Source: Caulobacteraceae bacterium (GTDB lineage Bacteria; Pseudomonadota; Alphaproteobacteria; Caulobacterales; Caulobacteraceae). From it: 64,000 nt of DNA. Location of the stretch: assembly GCA_036494815.1 (NCBI GenBank), contig DASXNV010000030.1:44858-108857 (forward strand), read 5' to 3'. Positions 4,350-63,617 of the stretch are shown here, piece by piece. The notes beneath the pieces were generated by a model. That model saw nothing but the letters and a program-made list of their open reading frames with translations. It was not told the origin of the DNA and searched no databases. How positions within the stretch are numbered: position 1 is the first letter of the stretch; each line of letters opens with the position of its first letter. Position numbers and translations under genes: made by a program.

Positions 4350-6302
4350 ATGTCGAACAAGTCCGAGAGCCCCACCGACACCTTCAAGCGCGCCCTGGCC
4401 CAGGCCACGCGCTCCCTGGCCGAGTCCGCCGATCTGGAGGTCACCTTTTCCGGCGACGGGCCGCAGCTGAGCGGCCACCACGCCATCCTGCCCCATCCGC
4501 CGCGCGACCTGTCGGGCAAGGAGACCACCCGCATCCGCGGCCTGGCCGACCAGATGGCCCTGCGGCTGGCGCACCATGACGCCGCCGCCCACGCCCGCCT
4601 GTCGCCGCACTCGCCGCAGAGCCGGGCGATCTTCGAGGCCGTGGAGCAGGCGCGCATCGAGGCCATTGGCGCCAACGCCCTGGGCGGCGTGCGCGTCAAC
4701 CTGACCGCGGTGCTGGAACAGGCGGTGGAACGCAAAGGCCTGGCCCGGTACGACGAGCTGGCGCCGCCGCCCCTGGCCGATATCGTCAGCCTGATGGTGC
4801 GCGAGCGCCTGACCGGTGACGCGCCGCCCGACGCCGCCAAGCTGCTGGTGGATCGCCACCGCGCCGAGATCGAGGCCAAGGCCGGCGAGGATCTCAATCG
4901 CCTGATGAACTCGATGGACGACCAGGCCGCCTTCGCCCGGGTGGCCCGCGCCATCATCAAGGATCTCGATCTGGGCGAAGATCTGGGCGACGAGTCCCAG
5001 GACAGCGAGGACGGCGAGAGCGACCCGTCCGAAGCGCCCCAGGACGTCAATGACGACGCCAGCGAAGGCGAGGACCAGGAAGGCGAAGGCGCCCAGCCCG
5101 ATCCTTCCCAGACCTCCGAGCAGGACACCGAGGGCGCCGACGACCAGCGCGTGGAGGTGGACGAGGACGCCGAGGCCGAGGACAGCGAAGACTCCCCGGA
5201 AATGGGTGAGGGCGAGCAGCCCGCCCGTCCCGAGGCCAAGGATCCCGGCCTGAAGGAGCCGCCCTACAAGGTGTTCACCGCTGGACACGACGAGGTGGTC
5301 GACGCCGAGGAACTGTGCGAACCGGAAGAGCTGAACCGCCTGCGCGCCTATCTGGACCAGCAGCTGGCCAATCTGCACAACGTGGTCTCGCGCCTGGCCA
5401 ACCGGCTGCAACGGCGGCTAATGGCGCAGCAGAACCGTTCTTGGAGTTTCGACCTGGAGGAGGGCCTGCTGGACGTGGCGCGCCTGACCCGGGTGATCGT
5501 CGATCCCACTGCGCCCCTGTCGTTCAAGCAGGAGCAGGACACCGAGTTCCGCGACACCGTCGTCAGCCTGCTGATCGACAATTCCGGCTCCATGCGCGGG
5601 CGGCCGATCATGGTGGCGGCGGTCTGCGCCGACATCCTGGCCCGCACGCTTGAGCGCTGCGGGGTCAAGGTGGAGATCCTGGGCTTCACCACCCGGGCCT
5701 GGAAGGGCGGCCAGTCGCGCGAGGACTGGCTAAAGGCCGGCAAGCCCGCCGCCCCCGGCCGGCTGAACGACCTGCGACACATCGTCTACAAGTCCGCCGA
5801 CGCGCCGTGGCGCCGCGCCCGCCGCAATCTGGGCCTGATGATGCGCGAGGGCCTGCTGAAGGAGAATATCGACGGCGAGGCCCTGATCTGGGCGCACCAC
5901 CGCCTGATCGGCCGCACCGAGCAGCGGCGGATCCTGATGGTCATCTCCGACGGGGCGCCGGTGGACGATTCGACCCTGTCGGTGAACTCCGGCCACTATC
6001 TGGAGCGCCATCTGCGCACCGTGATCACCGAAATCGAGACCCATTCTCCAGTCGAGCTGATCGCCATCGGCATCGGCCATGATGTGCGCCGCTATTACCG
6101 CCGCGCCGTGACCATCGTCGATGTGGAGCAGCTGGGCGGGGTGATCACCGAGCAACTGGCCGAACTGTTCGACGAGGAGCCCCGCGCTTCCAAGGGTCGG
6201 GTGTCCGCTGTCCTGCAGGCCCCGCCCGCGGTGCAAGGCCCCAGTCCCGTGTCCGCCGGACGCCGCGGCGCCGTGCGAGAGATCGCCGAGGCGTTGCGCT
6301 AG
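4350..6302 (+). CDS. cobT: CobT-type protein (acidic linker + C-terminal von Willebrand A domain; annotated as cobaltochelatase subunit CobT)
   Basis: There is a long D/E-rich segment ([18 protein letters not shown]...). The vWA/MIDAS region is [13 protein letters not shown]...[11 protein letters not shown]. The 650 aa length is typical of CobT. Confidence 0.9.
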
Positions 6303-16519: not shown

Positions 16520-16881
16520 GACGCACCTTCCTTCGATGGATCACCCTGTCCAAGTCACCAACGAACCCTGGACGCCTGGCCGACCCTGAGGGTCGGGGAC
16601 AGAAAGACAAGGCTCGAAGTCAACGATCAGATCGAAAGGTTAATATTGTCCGATTCGCCGGCGGATGACTGAATGTCGCAGGTAGAGAAGTCAGAATTCT
16701 GGCGCCAAGCCATCGGCGAATACAATTTCGTTTGATCGCCGGGACCATGAACATTGGCACTCAATAAGATGGAGTGCTGCGAGCAGTCGTGGCGCCTCCC
16801 TTGTCCAGCGCCGGCCCGATTGTCGCTTTCCAACAGCGTCGATCTGGAATCTGCCCCCGCCCTAGGCTAAGGAGAGTTCGG

Positions 16882-17174
16882 GTCTCCGTAGCTCAGCCGG
16901 ATAGAGCACAGGTTTCCTAGCCAATTGGGCATCGAGATCGGAAACGCCTCGATGAATCCGCTCAAAGTCGGGGAAAGCTTCGGCCTTCGCGCCATGCCAA
17001 TCCCGAGCCAAGCCCGGAAACGGGAAGGTGTAGAGACTAGACGGGCGGCGCCTAAGACCCCGCAAAGGGTTATGGTGAAGGGATAGTCCAGACCACGAAC
17101 GCCGGAAGGCGGCGGCGAAAGTCGAAGTGGGATGAAACCTGGGGTCGCGTGTTCGAGTCACGCCGGGGACGCCA
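16882..17174 (+). tRNA. tRNA-Arg(CCU), interrupted by a group I intron (exons 16882-16918 and 17135-17174, CCA encoded)
   Basis: The joined exons fold into a complete cloverleaf. Acceptor stem GTCTCCG/CGGGGAC, D stem GCTC/GAGC, anticodon stem CAGGT/ACCTG, anticodon loop TTCCTAA, T stem GCGTG/CACGC, T loop TTCGAGT. Confidence 0.9.
16919..17134 (+). ncRNA. Group I self-splicing intron, IC3-like, 216 nt, no ORF
   Basis: Inserted after U36 and ends in G. Core string GAAGGTGTAGAGACTAGACGG...CCTAAG...TTATGG plus CGAGCCAAGC closely resembles the Azoarcus tRNA-Ile IC3 intron core as I remember it. A P1 helix CCUAG/UUGGG with a U-G pair at the splice site is possible. Several GAAA-capped hairpins are present. 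Confidence 0.85.
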
Positions 17175-17203
17175 TATTTTCAATGAGTAAGCTTGCCAAA
17201 AGC

Positions 17204-17238
17204 GGCTTCCCAGCGCCGGTCCGGATCGCTGGGAAGCC
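17204..17238 (+). terminator. 12-bp perfect hairpin (ggcttcccagcg / cgctgggaagcc) 30 nt downstream of the tRNA; possible terminator
   Basis: Read from the sequence. It is followed by GGCTTTGG, which is only a weak U-tract. Confidence 0.35.
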
Positions 17239-17368
17239 GGCTTTGGCGTGGAACGCGTTGCATTTCAGGCCATGGGACGCCGGCCCATCGAAGGGCGACG
17301 GGACGTCGCCGATCTGCGGCGACGCTCCGTTTTGATGATCCGGCCGACCGCCGTTTCGCCGGCCGTGA

Positions 17369-17580
17369 GCTAGTCTTACTGCGACAGAACGACAATATCT
17401 CGCCCGGCCGGACAAGAGCGACGTCAGCAGCGCGGTCAAGCAGAAGATCGTCGAGCTGTTGCCGAACGGGGAATGCACTCGGGAAATCGTCGCCAAGGCC
17501 ATGGGCATGAGCCCCACGGCCCTGCAGTTCAAGCTGGCCAAGGCGGACACCTCCTTCCAGACTATTCTGGAAGCGGCTTT
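17369..17580 (+). pseudogene. Fragment of an AraC/XylS-family regulator (first HTH subdomain only)
   Basis: The in-frame translation ...VKQKIVELLPNGECTREIVAKAMGMSPTALQFKLAKADTSFQTILE resembles the AraC pattern (L..G..S.E.VA..LGMS.RTLQR.L...GTSF..L). There is no ligand-binding domain and no second HTH. The frame opens just after a stop codon at 17366. Confidence 0.4.
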
Positions 17581-17777
17581 CGCCATCCGAATATCGGAAA
17601 CACCCAACCCAGGAACGGACGGCCACCCTCTGAACCCTGGCGCGAGGCCGCTGGTGGCGCCAGGGTCCTGGCGAGACTTGACCCCCGACGAAAAACAGAT
17701 GCGGCATCCTCCGTACACGGTATACCTGCCCGACCGCCCCAGGGCGGGGGGAAATGCTGGGATTCGGGGCCGCCAAA

Positions 17778-32708: not shown

Positions 32709-32868
32709 GGGACTTTCGGTAGCGCGGACCTAGTGGGACGGGGCCACCAGGCTGCGTGGAGCTATGGAGGACGCAACTCTGAGCGACCCAGGGTGGGGTC
32801 CGTCCGCTCGGTCAGCGTCAGCGCCCTGGTTCGGATCAACGACCCGAACCAGGTTCGCCAGTCGTCTT

Positions 32869-33078
32869 TTAGACGGCCTGAAGTTGGCCAGCGGACATCT
32901 TGCCGCTGCGTTGGTCGCGCTCGAGTTCGAACGAAAGCTTTTGGCCTTCGTTGATCGAACCCAGGCCCGCACGCTCGACGGCCGAGATGTGCACGAACAC
33001 GTCCGCGCCGCCATTGTCAGGCTGGATGAAGCCGAAGCCCTTGGTGGCGTTGAACCACTTCACAGTGCCGATGGTCAT
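32869..33078 (-). CDS. Cold-shock protein (CspA family)
   Basis: [34 protein letters not shown] carries the RNP1 and RNP2 motifs. Confidence 0.92.
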
Positions 33079-33280
33079 AGATTTCACCTTTCCGGTGTGA
33101 TTATTCGCGCGGCCAAAATGGCGCACTTGATCAAATTGTCGGAGAGGATCGTGGCAGGCCCGGGAGCTTGAACCGAAGAGCAAGCGTGGAGAGCAACCGA
33201 ACCAAAGCGATATTCGATGGCTCATCTACCATCGATCGCTGGAGAAAATCCAGGGAAATTGCCGATTTATTGGAATAATA

Positions 33281-41222: not shown

Positions 41223-42304
41223 GCAAAAAGGCGATCAGTCTGAAAGCGCGGCTGGCGGAGCAGATCAGCGCCAGCGGGCCGCTGACCATCGCCCAGTTCA
41301 TGACCGCCTGTCTGCACGACCCTCACGCCGGCTACTACGCCACCCGGCCAGCCCTAGGCGCGGAGGGTGATTTTATCACCGCGCCCCTTGTCTCGCAGAT
41401 GTTCGGTGAATTGATCGGATTGTGGGCGGTGGAGACCTGGCGCGACCTTGGACGCCCATCCCCGTTCCACCTGATCGAGGCGGGGCCCGGCGATGGAACC
41501 TTGATGGCCGATCTGTTGCGGGCGGCCAAGCTCGATCCTGACTTTCTGGCCGCCGCCGACCTCTGGCTGATCGAAACCAGCCCACCCCTGGCCGCACGCC
41601 AGGCGGAGCGGTTGGCCGGCGCGCCGATCGCGCCCCGTTGGGCCCGTTCCCTGGCCGAGGTTCCCGAGGGCGCAGCCATGATCCTGATCGCCAACGAGCT
41701 TCTGGACTGCCTGCCTGTGCGCCAATTCGTGCGCGTGACCGGCGGCTGGGCCGAGCGCATGGTTGGCCTGGATCAGGCCGGCGCCCTGGCCTTTGGCCTT
41801 GCCGCCTGCCCGCCGGGGGTGGTTGCCGCCCTGGACGCCGCGCCCGGCGACATCGTCGAATTGTCCGCCGCCCAGGCCGCCCTGGGGGCCGAGATCGGCG
41901 CCCGCCTCGCCAGGTTCGGCGGGGCGGGCCTTTTGATCGACTATGGCCGCGCACATTTCGAGACCGGCGACACCCTTCAGGCGCTCAAGCAGCATGAGAA
42001 GGTCGATCCCCTGGCCACGGCGGGCGAGGCCGATCTGACCGTCCACGCCGACTTCCCGGCCGTCGCCGCCGCCGCCAAAGCCGAAGGTGCGATGGCGGCG
42101 CTGCTCACCCAGGGGGAGTTGCTGCGCCGGCTGGGGATCGACGCCCGCGCCGCCGCCCTGTCCCGCGCCCGCCCGGACCAGGCGGCGATCCTGGCTCGCC
42201 AGCTCGCCCGCCTGACCGGCGACGACCAGATGGGGCGCCTGTTCAAGGCGCTTTGCCTTTATGCTCCAGGCCAGACGCCGCCCGCGTTCGAGACCAATTC
42301 ATGA
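41219..42304 (+). CDS. Class I SAM-dependent methyltransferase, MidA/NDUFAF7 (DUF185) family
   Basis: TTG start overlapping the lgt stop codon (cTTGAg). GPLT.AQFM..CL.DP..GYY......G..GDFITAP..SQMFGE and ANELLDCLPVRQF motifs. Confidence 0.8.
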   Translation: MSKKAISLKARLAEQISASGPLTIAQFMTACLHDPHAGYYATRPALGAEGDFITAPLVSQMFGELIGLWAVETWRDLGRPSPFHLIEAGPGDGTLMADLLRAAKLDPDFLAAADLWLIETSPPLAARQAERLAGAPIAPRWARSLAEVPEGAAMILIANELLDCLPVRQFVRVTGGWAERMVGLDQAGALAFGLAACPPGVVAALDAAPGDIVELSAAQAALGAEIGARLARFGGAGLLIDYGRAHFETGDTLQALKQHEKVDPLATAGEADLTVHADFPAVAAAAKAEGAMAALLTQGELLRRLGIDARAAALSRARPDQAAILARQLARLTGDDQMGRLFKALCLYAPGQTPPAFETNS

Positions 42305-61311: not shown

Positions 61312-63617
61312 GGCGTAAGCATCAGTGGGCGGATCTCGCCCATCGGCAGGATGACCTTCAGCGGGGCCGACAGGGCGACCGAGATCCCCGCTTCGTCTGA
61401 CCGAACGCCGATGCGCCAGCTTTCGTCGACCACGGGCGCCGATTCGCCGTCGTCCTCGAAGAACCGATCTTCGAAGGCTCCTGGCCCCATGTGAGGAAAC
61501 ACCAGGACACCCCGCTCATGGCCAGGCTTGGCGAAGTGCTGCTCGGCGAGATTGACCGGGACAGCGCAACCCTCTCGGGCGAGGACAACAGGCCGGTTCC
61601 AAGGCGCGGGCCGGCTGACCGTCTGGCCGCCCTCGAATCGCTGGCCGGTCCACAGATCATACCAGCCGGTCCCGGCAGGCAGATAAACCTCGCGCGCGGT
61701 CACACTGGGCTCAACCACGGGCGCAACCAGCAGCGAGCGGCCGAGCATGAAGTCGTCGCTCTCGCGCCAACAGGCCGGATCGTCCGGAAAATCGAGGAAG
61801 GTCGGCCGCACGATGGGCTCGAAGGCCCGGTGATAGCGCCAGACCAGATCATAAAGGCAGGGAACCAGCCGCCCGCGCAGCTTGATCAGATCGCGCACCA
61901 CCGGGGTCGCTTGCGGGTGCATCCAGGGCTCGTTGACCGTGCCGTCGTCGTTCCACGAGTGGATTGAAAAGCGCGGCATGAACACACCGAACTGCACCCA
62001 GCGCACCAAGAGCTCGGCGTCCGGCGCCGGGCCGGAAAAGCCGCCGATGTCGTGGCCGATATTGGAGACCCCCGACAGGGCCAGGCCCAGCCCCATCTTG
62101 ATGTTGTATTTCAGGGTCTCCCACGAGGTCGCATTGTCGCCAGACCAGGTCTGGACATAGCGCTGCATGCCCAGGCCGCCGGAGCGTGACACCAGATAGG
62201 GCCGCTTGGCCGACGCATGGGTGAGTTGGGCGTCGCGGGAGGCGCGCATCATCATCAGGGTCTGAAGCGGCTTGAGCTCACGGGCGGCGCGGGGCTGGCC
62301 GAAGCCGTGGGCCAGGGCCTTGGGCGACCAGATCTCGAACTCGTTATTGTCGTTCCAGGTTGAGGCCAGGCCGACCTCGAGCAGGCTTTGCGTGACCCGC
62401 GCCCTCCACCAGTCGAGGGTCCTCGGGTTGGTGAAGTCGAGATAGGCGCCCAGCCCGTCCCAGAACTGCACCCAGGCCGGCTGGCCGTCGGCTTCGGCGA
62501 TCAACAGGCCCTGGCCCGCCGCCTCGTCGAAGCGCGGATTATCGGCCAGCAGGCAGGGCTTTATATTGGCGCACAGTCGTACGCCCTGGTCGGCATAGCT
62601 GCGGGCGAAGCCGGGCGGATCGGGGAATTTGTCGCGGTTCCAGTGGAACACGTGTCGCCGCGCGCCGATGGAGGTGTAGCCGGAGGACAGGTGGAAGCAA
62701 TCGCACAGGATGTCATGCTCGGCGCATTTGTCCAGGAAACCGGCCATCTGCGCCTGGGCGTCCGGCGCGTCGGTATAGGACATGGTCGAGCCGGAATAGC
62801 CCAGCGCCCACCGCGGCGGAAAGGCCGGCCGCCCCGTCAGCCAGGTCAGCCGCCGCACCACCTGATCCACCGCCGGCCCGGCGATGAAATAGTAGTCCAG
62901 GTCCCCATGGTCGGCGACGAAGTGGCGATAGAGGCCGTGATAGTTGTCCCGCTCCTGGCCGAAATCGAAGCTGGCGTCCGACAGAGTATCGTAGAGCAGG
63001 CCGAAGGCCAGCCCGGTGTCCGGTCGGGCTGTGACATAGACTGGCAGGTGCTTGTAGAGCGGGTCGCTGGTGCGGGCGTCGTAGCCCATGGCGTCCACAT
63101 TGGTCAGGCGAAAGCGGCGGCCGGCGCGGTCCATATCCCCGGTGCGCTCGCCCAGGCCATAATAGCGCTCTGCCGGCTCGCGGCGCAGATAGTGATAGAT
63201 CTTCTCGTCCCAGAAGCCCCAGTTATAGGCCTGGGTGGGCCGGTCACGGGCGGCGGGGAGCCACGCCTCGCCGACCTTGATCGACCAGGAACAATCAAAA
63301 CCCTCCAACCTCACGCTGAGGCGCACCAGAGCCGTCGATAGGCTCAGATGGGTCTCATCCTGTTCCAACTCGAACGCCGGCAGGGTGAAGCCGGTTAGGT
63401 CGAACCGGTCGCGGCCTTCCACTGGCGTATCGTCCAACCCCGGCGCGATAGCCCAGGTTCGGGGTTGGTCCAGGCGACCGCCGGGCAAGGCCATGACCCG
63501 CACCACGGCCTCTTCCAGCACGAACAGGTGGACGATGTCGCCCTGGCCGCTGGTCAGGGTCAACCGGCCCGGCGCCTGATCGGTCAGCTCAAAGCGCGGC
63601 GGGTGGGCGAGCGACAT
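61308..63617 (-). CDS. Glycoside hydrolase family 31 (alpha-glucosidase/alpha-xylosidase-like)
   Basis: The catalytic region STWNDNNEF matches the W.DMNE-type motif. WSGDN and GHDIGGF are also present. 769 aa. Confidence 0.9.
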   Translation of the reverse strand: MSLAHPPRFELTDQAPGRLTLTSGQGDIVHLFVLEEAVVRVMALPGGRLDQPRTWAIAPGLDDTPVEGRDRFDLTGFTLPAFELEQDETHLSLSTALVRLSVRLEGFDCSWSIKVGEAWLPAARDRPTQAYNWGFWDEKIYHYLRREPAERYYGLGERTGDMDRAGRRFRLTNVDAMGYDARTSDPLYKHLPVYVTARPDTGLAFGLLYDTLSDASFDFGQERDNYHGLYRHFVADHGDLDYYFIAGPAVDQVVRRLTWLTGRPAFPPRWALGYSGSTMSYTDAPDAQAQMAGFLDKCAEHDILCDCFHLSSGYTSIGARRHVFHWNRDKFPDPPGFARSYADQGVRLCANIKPCLLADNPRFDEAAGQGLLIAEADGQPAWVQFWDGLGAYLDFTNPRTLDWWRARVTQSLLEVGLASTWNDNNEFEIWSPKALAHGFGQPRAARELKPLQTLMMMRASRDAQLTHASAKRPYLVSRSGGLGMQRYVQTWSGDNATSWETLKYNIKMGLGLALSGVSNIGHDIGGFSGPAPDAELLVRWVQFGVFMPRFSIHSWNDDGTVNEPWMHPQATPVVRDLIKLRGRLVPCLYDLVWRYHRAFEPIVRPTFLDFPDDPACWRESDDFMLGRSLLVAPVVEPSVTAREVYLPAGTGWYDLWTGQRFEGGQTVSRPAPWNRPVVLAREGCAVPVNLAEQHFAKPGHERGVLVFPHMGPGAFEDRFFEDDGESAPVVDESWRIGVRSDEAGISVALSAPLKVILPMGEIRPLMLTP

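Follow-up and report, generated by a model that had tools for sequence, protein, structure and literature searches.

Does an apparently gene-free segment of a Caulobacteraceae bacterium genome conceal a working transfer RNA (tRNA) gene? The segment lies in a 64,000-nucleotide (nt) stretch of contig DASXNV010000030.1 (positions 44,858 to 108,857 of the forward strand), hereafter called the window, to whose first letter all positions below are counted. ARAGORN without its intron mode found zero tRNA genes in the window, and Rfam searched at its gathering thresholds returned no match there. An initial annotation made from the sequence had proposed a tRNA-Arg(CCU) gene split by a group I intron at 16882-17174, and had cautioned that annotation pipelines easily miss this kind of element. 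The two null results justify that caution, as does the case of Bartonella bacilliformis, in which the BbgpI intron, self-splicing in vitro and in vivo, sits in a tRNA gene that had gone un-annotated (PMC7717549). We conclude that 16882-17174, on the forward strand, is very probably a functional tRNA-Arg(CCU) gene split by a 216-nt group I intron of the IC3 type and the Arg.5Ug class that lacks an open reading frame (ORF). The anatomy of the gene, its membership in a family and the conservation of its structure are matters of observation and are described first.

Exon 1 (16882-16918, forward strand, 37 nt) supplies the 5′ strand of the acceptor stem, the D arm with A20 present, the 5′ strand of the anticodon stem, and U33 to U36. 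Its 3′ end reads UUCCU (...CAGGUUUCCU), and the anticodon CCU occupies 16916-16918. The insert (16919-17134, forward strand, 216 nt) begins AGCC (AGCCAAUUGGGC...), and its last bases are GGGAUG (...GUGGGAUG). Exon 2 (17135-17174, forward strand, 40 nt) begins AAACCUG (AAACCUGGGG...) and provides A37, A38, the 3′ strand of the anticodon stem, the variable loop, the T arm, the 3′ strand of the acceptor stem, the discriminator G, and a final CCA (...GGGGACGCCA). When the exons are joined, ARAGORN folds the resulting 77 nt into a cloverleaf tRNA-Arg(cct) with its CCA encoded; the uninterrupted form reads GCACAGGTTTCCTAAACCTGGGGTCGC. The insertion point lies between U36 and A37. A deletion shifted by one base (16920-17135) yields the identical mature tRNA, and the borders 16919-17134 were chosen because no other choice gives both a U at position -1 of the 5′ splice site and a terminal G. 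No ORF for an intron-encoded endonuclease was found in the 216-nt intron, which has no room for one because helices P1 to P9 take up its whole length.

With intron mode enabled (-i), ARAGORN made a single call in the window, tRNA-Arg(cct) i(38,216) at 16882-17174 with one additional D-loop base, and thereby reproduced exactly the exon borders, cloverleaf and encoded CCA of the initial annotation. This mode is untrustworthy by itself. It reports spurious split tRNAs with "introns" of 240 to 1500 nt at other loci (L316-L320; L018, L061, L072, L084, L091), most of them within called genes, and it also misplaces the splice sites and isotypes of real introns; several of its Phe(gaa) and Ser(tga) calls are 80 to 86% identical, over their full length, to a plasmid tRNA-Leu(UAA) gene. 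Host-tRNA tallies from ARAGORN -i need checks for the U at -1 and the terminal omega-G. The case for the window gene is accordingly built on relatives and on independent signals that coincide. One such signal is the Rfam group I intron model RF00028, which in E-value mode aligned over its full length to 16906-17114 with 39.4 bits (E = 1.6e-8 when searched locally and 1.5e-6 over both strands of the entire window). Another comes from an nhmmer profile of the intron columns of 49 further tRNA-Arg(CCU) introns, all of them below 85% identity to the window sequence. Searched with this leave-out profile, the window yielded one match, which covers 16921-17134, scores 186 bits (E = 1.6e-56) and has G17134 as its last base. 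Both matches, together with the class described in the literature, uphold the proposed group I (IC3-type) identity.

Relatives of the intron were sought in species genomes and in metagenomes. A 20-nt core, AAGGTGTAGAGACTAGACGG, is present in at least 120 species genomes, and nearly all matches listed fall within intron-split tRNA genes. Among these matches, the host is mostly tRNA-Leu(taa), and seven hosts are tRNA-Arg(cct) (Methylorubrum, Methylobacterium, Xanthobacter, an Acetobacteraceae metagenome-assembled genome [MAG], a Herbaspirillum MAG, and others). The Arg(cct) introns of species genomes align to the window sequence over its full length at 76 to 87% identity, the closest labelled genome among the matches listed being the Acetobacteraceae MAG at 86.5%; introns of other tRNAs align to the core alone (query positions 77-256, ∼180 nt). 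In metagenomes, a pattern anchored on exon 1 and P1 retrieved 68 contigs, 62 of which hold a complete split tRNA-Arg(cct). All 62 share the intron position, the U at -1 and a G as the last intron base, and their introns measure 209 to 267 nt, which places the window's 216 nt near the short end. Scored by ARAGORN -i, the 69 split tRNA-Arg(cct) genes from both sources (7 species genomes and 62 metagenomes) are all cut in the anticodon loop, at gene position 38 in 68 cases and at 37 in one.

Over the full 293 nt, the window gene is 76 to 97% identical to the other split tRNA-Arg(CCU) genes. Its closest relatives are the metagenome contigs L139 and L183 (96.9%), and its exons, identical to those of L139, are highly conserved over the 61 distinct genes aligned below. 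The single gene called at position 37 (L093, 4159-4469, from the Herbaspirillum MAG) is a betaproteobacterial tRNA-Arg(CCU) with a different anticodon stem and the same type of intron in its anticodon loop, yet it aligns with the other members. Four of its P3 pairs and all five of its anticodon-stem pairs differ on both sides from those of other members with pairing kept, a pattern consistent with either old divergence or transfer between classes. Two side observations concern other carriers of the core. One MAG contig (L009) has the core motif twice, at 5652-5671 on the forward strand and at 6129-6148 on the reverse strand, ∼500 nt apart, which suggests two neighboring split tRNA genes. Introns of 190 to 194 nt with the core occur in L011 (a Magnetovibrio MAG; tRNA-Thr ggt), L095 and L071, with borders as called by ARAGORN -i; the Azoarcus intron is 205 nt long, and these three are shorter if the ARAGORN borders are right.

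Conservation of structure was evaluated in an alignment of the 61 distinct split tRNA-Arg(CCU) genes with RNAalifold, after which P6 and the pseudoknotted P7 were added by hand. RNAalifold recovered the four tRNA stems together with P1, P2, P3, P4, P5, P6a, P8, P9, P9a, and P9b. Over P1 to P9 plus the cloverleaf, 98.2% of alignment cells are paired, versus 33 to 44% when the 3′ partners are slid by one to three columns. Changes on both sides were found in 38 of the 84 pairs, none of 500 column shuffles equaled the observed pairing and covariation values, and compensatory changes are present in P2, P3, P4, P5, P6a, P8, P9a, and P9b.

The individual elements, all on the forward strand, are taken here in 5′ to 3′ order. 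P1 (16916-16920 / 16925-16929) joins the exon CCU and the first intron bases AG to an internal guide UUGGG across a CCAA loop, through the pairs C16916-G16929, C16917-G16928, U16918-G16927, A16919-U16926, and G16920-U16925. This is the CCUAG/UUGGG helix that the initial annotation had drawn, with the splice-site U in a U-G wobble, and that wobble (U16918-G16927) is found in every one of the 61 sequences; of the five P1 pairs, four do not vary, and the fifth is A-U or G-U. U16925 and U16926 may instead pair with A17136 and A17135 of exon 2 to give a 2-base-pair (bp) P10. The P2 hairpin (16930-16954) consists of 7 bp, an internal bulge and 2 bp, closed by a GAAA tetraloop at 16941-16944, with compensatory changes in six of its seven pairs. 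The 5′ strand of P3, CCGCUC (16958-16963), pairs with the 3′ strand GGGCGG (17043-17048); four of these six pairs vary in both partners, with a complete swap in L093. The P4-P5 domain (16968-17006) comprises P4 (16968-16973 / 17001-17006), J4/5 AAA (16974-16976), J5/4 CAA (16998-17000), and P5 (16977-16978 / 16996-16997) with a short distal hairpin; RNAalifold and pair counts support the domain. The distal part of P5 varies in length among members, and its pairing in the window is tentative.

P6 and P6a span 17007-17029, with P6 formed by GCC/GGU (17007-17009 / 17027-17029) and P6a by CCCG-GAAA-CGGG (17013-17024), in which two pairs covary. The 5′ strand of P7, G(A)GACUA (17033-17039), has a bulged A17034 and pairs perfectly with the 3′ strand UAGUCC (17084-17089); a compensatory P7 variant, GACUG/CAGUC, occurs in a plasmid tRNA-Leu intron. 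P3 and P7 together make the pseudoknotted core, and by homology to Azoarcus we take G17035-C17088 in P7 to be the guanosine-binding pair. P8 (17049-17077) combines the canonical 11-nt tetraloop-receptor motif CCUAAG...UAUGG with a 4-bp distal stem, and seven of its pairs show compensatory changes (two in the proximal helix, five in the distal helix). J8/7, AAGGGA (17078-17083), was placed by the RF00028 alignment, as was the P7 3′ strand, and the run formed by the two (17078-17089) is nearly invariant in the family. The P9 three-way domain (17093-17130) is built from P9, CCAC/GUGG (17093-17096 / 17127-17130), P9a, CGCC-GGAA-GGCG (17100-17111, three compensatory pairs), and P9b, CGGC-GAAA-GUCG (17113-17124, two compensatory pairs). 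The intron closes with omega-G at 17134, the 3′ splice site, a column that is invariant in the 61 sequences and, as noted above, G in 62 of 62 metagenomic relatives, in keeping with the terminal G of the initial annotation. The motifs quoted in that annotation are all in place: GAAGGTGTAGAGACTAGACGG at 17024-17044, CGAGCCAAGC at 17004-17013, and CCTAAG...TTATGG within 17051-17076. What it regarded as an extra 3′ extension of ∼58 nt proved to be ordinary intron parts, namely, the last P8 pair, J8/7, the P7 3′ strand, P9, and omega-G, all of which have counterparts in the Azoarcus intron.

These features permit a class assignment. A P1 with a U-G wobble, an omega-G, and a P3-P9 core with a P3/P7 pseudoknot identify the insert as a group I intron. 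Its architecture (P2 present, no P5abc extension, compact P9) and core match those of recognized IC3 tRNA introns, so that the IC3 placement is one by shared core, architecture and literature rather than by formal subgroup criteria. Arg.5Ug is one of four classical types of bacterial tRNA intron, all IC3 (bioRxiv 10.1101/2020.01.27.920355), and the window element has its host tRNA (tRNA-Arg CCU), its insertion between nt 36 and 37, and homology to its members beyond the core. The tRNA-Arg(CCU) intron family is alphaproteobacterial and sporadic and was first found in Agrobacterium (PMC7717549); for the Agrobacterium tumefaciens intron, that article cites Reinhold-Hurek & Shub 1992 and Paquin et al. 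1999. The initial annotation was thus right that the class is known, with Agrobacterium as the classic case, and its word "rare" holds in a relative sense only, given the breadth of the core in species genomes and the 5,292 split tRNA genes reported by Williams (bioRxiv 10.1101/2020.01.27.920355). Like the Agrobacterium and Bartonella Arg.5Ug introns, the window intron has the same host tRNA and anticodon, a site after the third anticodon base, U at -1, omega-G, a P1-P9 architecture without an ORF, and a gene missed by default annotation. It differs from the published Arg.5Ug members in having a new sequence, of uncultured and probably alphaproteobacterial origin, and from most tRNA-Arg(CCU) members, which have variants, in that its P8 keeps the canonical CCUAAG/UAUGG receptor. 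The window copy is a new sequence in a family known since 1992, with no feature that departs from the family.

The initial annotation had called the core near-identical to that of the Azoarcus tRNA-Ile IC3 ribozyme. For this comparison we used a working copy of the Azoarcus sp. BH72 intron sequence, cross-checked solely against CAU-tRNA introns, those of the betaproteobacterial loci L064, L071 and L060, to which it is 81 to 83% identical. Apart from short motifs, this copy aligns to the window in the core only (68 nt, 79% identity). The likeness therefore stands for the core alone, and the real relatives are tRNA-Arg(CCU) introns. As in this copy of the Azoarcus tRNA-Ile(CAU) IC3 intron, the insertion follows nt 36, the J6/7-P7-P3′ and J8/7-P7′ strands are identical, P2 and P9 bear GAAA loops, and P8 has a receptor. 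Unlike it, the window intron sits in another host tRNA, its P2, P4-P6, and P9 sequences differ, and its P9 is a three-way junction. The tRNA-Leu(UAA) introns (Leu.3Ug; cyanobacterial, plastid, and proteobacterial) have the exact 20-nt core in common with the window intron; they differ from it in being inserted after U34, not U36, of another tRNA, and the likeness is limited to the ∼180-nt core.

By analogy with these systems, the gene would be transcribed as a precursor of ∼293 nt or more, in which the intron would fold into P1 to P9 with the P3/P7 pseudoknot, braced by the GAAA tetraloops L2, L6a and L9b and by the 11-nt P8 receptor. The P8 motif is the likely receptor of the L2 GAAA loop. 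The P7 G-C pair (17035/17088) would bind free guanosine or GTP, which would attack the bond after U16918 in the U-G wobble; omega-G17134 would then replace the guanosine in the G site, and the 3′-OH of exon 1 would attack after G17134, joining the exons into the 77-nt tRNA with its encoded CCA. The intron would be released, RNase P and 3′ trimming would finish the tRNA ends, and the spliced tRNA-Arg(CCU) would read the rare AGG codon.

Could the call be a chance match or a software artefact, an ARAGORN -i false positive that happens to lie beside a spurious weak Rfam match? The many spurious split tRNAs produced elsewhere by ARAGORN -i, and the RF00028 score below the gathering threshold (GA), would fit that explanation. 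It is refuted by the family profile, whose E-value does not depend on close copies of the window sequence, by full-length homologues with the same splice site, U at -1 and omega-G, and by the strong covariation; its probability is negligible. An intron that has decayed and no longer splices, leaving a tRNA pseudogene and AGG to be read by another tRNA, has somewhat more in its favor. AGG is rare (2.6 per 1000 in eight window genes), and another tRNA-Arg(CCU) or a UCU tRNA outside the 64-kb window could cover it. Against decay stands the orthologous locus on L139, where the tRNA and intron are 96.9% identical and the flanks 83.6% identical over 5.5 kb. All nine columns that differ between the window and L139 are unpaired, lie in the P8 loop (including a non-pairing closing position), or change G-U to G-C. 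Members at 86 to 93% identity show the same pattern, most changes at paired sites keeping the pairing, and the window intron retains every family-invariant core position. We regard decay as highly improbable.

Several results nevertheless weigh against the conclusion that this is a functional gene split by a self-splicing intron. The 39.4 bits of the RF00028 match fall below the curated cut-off (GA 50 bits). Williams (2020) used an Rfam seed without bacterial introns and set cut-offs of 18 to 20 bits (bioRxiv 10.1101/2020.01.27.920355), and because of this make-up of the model a sub-threshold score is expected and does not count against the element. The minimum free energy (MFE) of the intron folded as a single sequence is no better than that of shuffles (z = -0.23), an uninformative test: such a fold has no means of representing the pseudoknot, and the G+C content of the sequence is high. 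Covariation is silent on P1, P6, and P7, which pair perfectly and never vary across the 61 sequences. A sigma-70 consensus scan upstream of the tRNA found no sigma-70-like promoter. The window intron was set beside the tested Agrobacterium and Bartonella members by description and not by direct alignment, and its splicing chemistry and activity are extrapolated from relatives that have been studied experimentally.

The last of these points leaves some room for a genuine group I intron that splices inefficiently by itself and depends on RNA chaperones or a protein cofactor in the cell, so that "self-splicing" would be an overstatement. With its 216 nt, the intron is among the shorter ones of the class, and its P5, P6, P8, and P9a are minimal. 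The small Azoarcus intron is a robust self-splicer, and in the window intron all core elements, the three GAAA tetraloops and the canonical receptor are intact. Cofactors are needed by some group I introns in vitro and presumed for all to some extent in vivo, but the related intron in the Bartonella tRNA-Arg(CCU) gene is able to self-splice in vitro (PMC7717549). On balance we think dependence on cofactors unlikely. A further idea is that the intron has a regulatory role, making the availability of tRNA-Arg(CCU), a rare-codon tRNA, and with it AGG decoding, depend on the level of guanosine nucleotides, or that the excised 216-nt RNA acts as a small RNA. The former is conceivable because splicing needs guanosine or GTP, and the latter because the Bartonella homologue is abundant; ordinary constraint on a ribozyme and a tRNA accounts equally well for the conservation of the element over its flanks, and we consider such a role very unlikely. 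A tRNA-Arg(CCU) gene with an active Arg.5Ug intron is therefore the reading that we retain.

By the gene calls of a second assembly from the same population, which is 99.98% identical over 16.5 kb and carries the identical 293 nt, no protein genes lie in 16520-17753, with a Usg-family gene on one side and a PhoU_div/PHO4 phosphate-transporter pair on the other. The G+C content of the window is 66.7%. Proteins of the locus have exact matches on metagenome contigs only (JGI and ENA) and, at NCBI, on a 123-kb contig. For CarD, the nearest named homologues come from Caulobacteraceae MAGs (87 to 90%), a protein too conserved to fix the lineage. The closest CarD-syntenic relatives (L314, 4343-4901; L315, 7056-7614; CarD 97% identical) share the gene order CarD, SNase, thiolase, Trx7, Usg with the window and have an acyl-CoA dehydrogenase gene, and no tRNA, after Usg; synteny with the window thus ends exactly at the tRNA gene. 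The scans of genome collections required the intron and are biased as a guide to its presence or absence, and a comparison with the named Arg(cct) genomes showed no synteny.

Upstream of the tRNA, a box, GGCTAAGGAG (16865-16874, forward strand), is kept before the tRNA in L139, L179, and L186, and CTGGAA (16844-16849, forward strand) is kept in L139 and L162; weaker variants occur in L155 and L140. These conserved elements (16844-16874) may be a promoter. About 20 nt 3′ of the tRNA is a long near-perfect hairpin (17194-17248, forward strand), GGCUUCCCAGCG...CGCUGGGAAGCC within a longer stem. Folding of 17175-17270 gives an MFE of -45.2 kcal/mol (z = -3.6). The hairpin lacks a U tract, is not conserved in L139, and could be a terminator-like or repeat element. 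Farther away, 32823-33237 on the reverse strand gives a sub-threshold match over the full length of RF01766 (cspA thermoregulator; 36.2 bits versus a GA of 78, E = 1e-5) and probably represents the gene of a cold-shock protein together with the 5′ leader.

Introns with a related core were also seen on mobile elements. The intron core (query 77-256, ∼80% identity) matches 1272 PLSDB plasmid records, mostly conjugative Enterobacterales resistance plasmids, with Escherichia (486), Klebsiella (357), Salmonella (114), and Acinetobacter (78) among the genera. On pCTX-M3 (NC_004464.2, ∼61823-62121; L321 2927-3225), an un-annotated copy adjoins a tmrB-like ATPase gene, aac(3)-IId, and IS26. This copy is a complete intron-split type-II tRNA (RF00028 36.8 bits, E = 1.3e-7). 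ARAGORN labels it Stop(tta), which is wrong; by eye it is a tRNA-Leu(UAA) with the classical site ...CUU|UAAAAUUGG...UACG|AAAA. The fetched loci closest to this intron-tRNA are alphaproteobacterial (82 to 86%), which hints at the donor of the pCTX-M3 resistance module; a literature search returned no paper with both "tmrB" and "group I intron." The 20-nt IC3 core is likewise present in at least 120 IMG/VR "viral" contigs (L190-L309). Among the matches listed, ARAGORN -i calls most as tRNA-Leu(taa) and none as Arg(cct), and it gives some unusual labels, for example Tyr(ata). These copies may represent split tRNAs carried by phages, or the ends of prophages at tRNA genes. In a phage database, Gordonia phage Daredevil matches the core at 41863-42050 with 72% identity.

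For the organism, the practical consequence lies in annotation: without intron-aware tools, its genome would seem to lack a tRNA-Arg(CCU), and 1.2 kb would be labelled intergenic. For the family, the window contributes a further natural IC3 ribozyme, compact at 216 nt and of uncultured origin, and opens no new question, and the 61 aligned tRNA-Arg(CCU) introns could seed a better model of bacterial tRNA introns.

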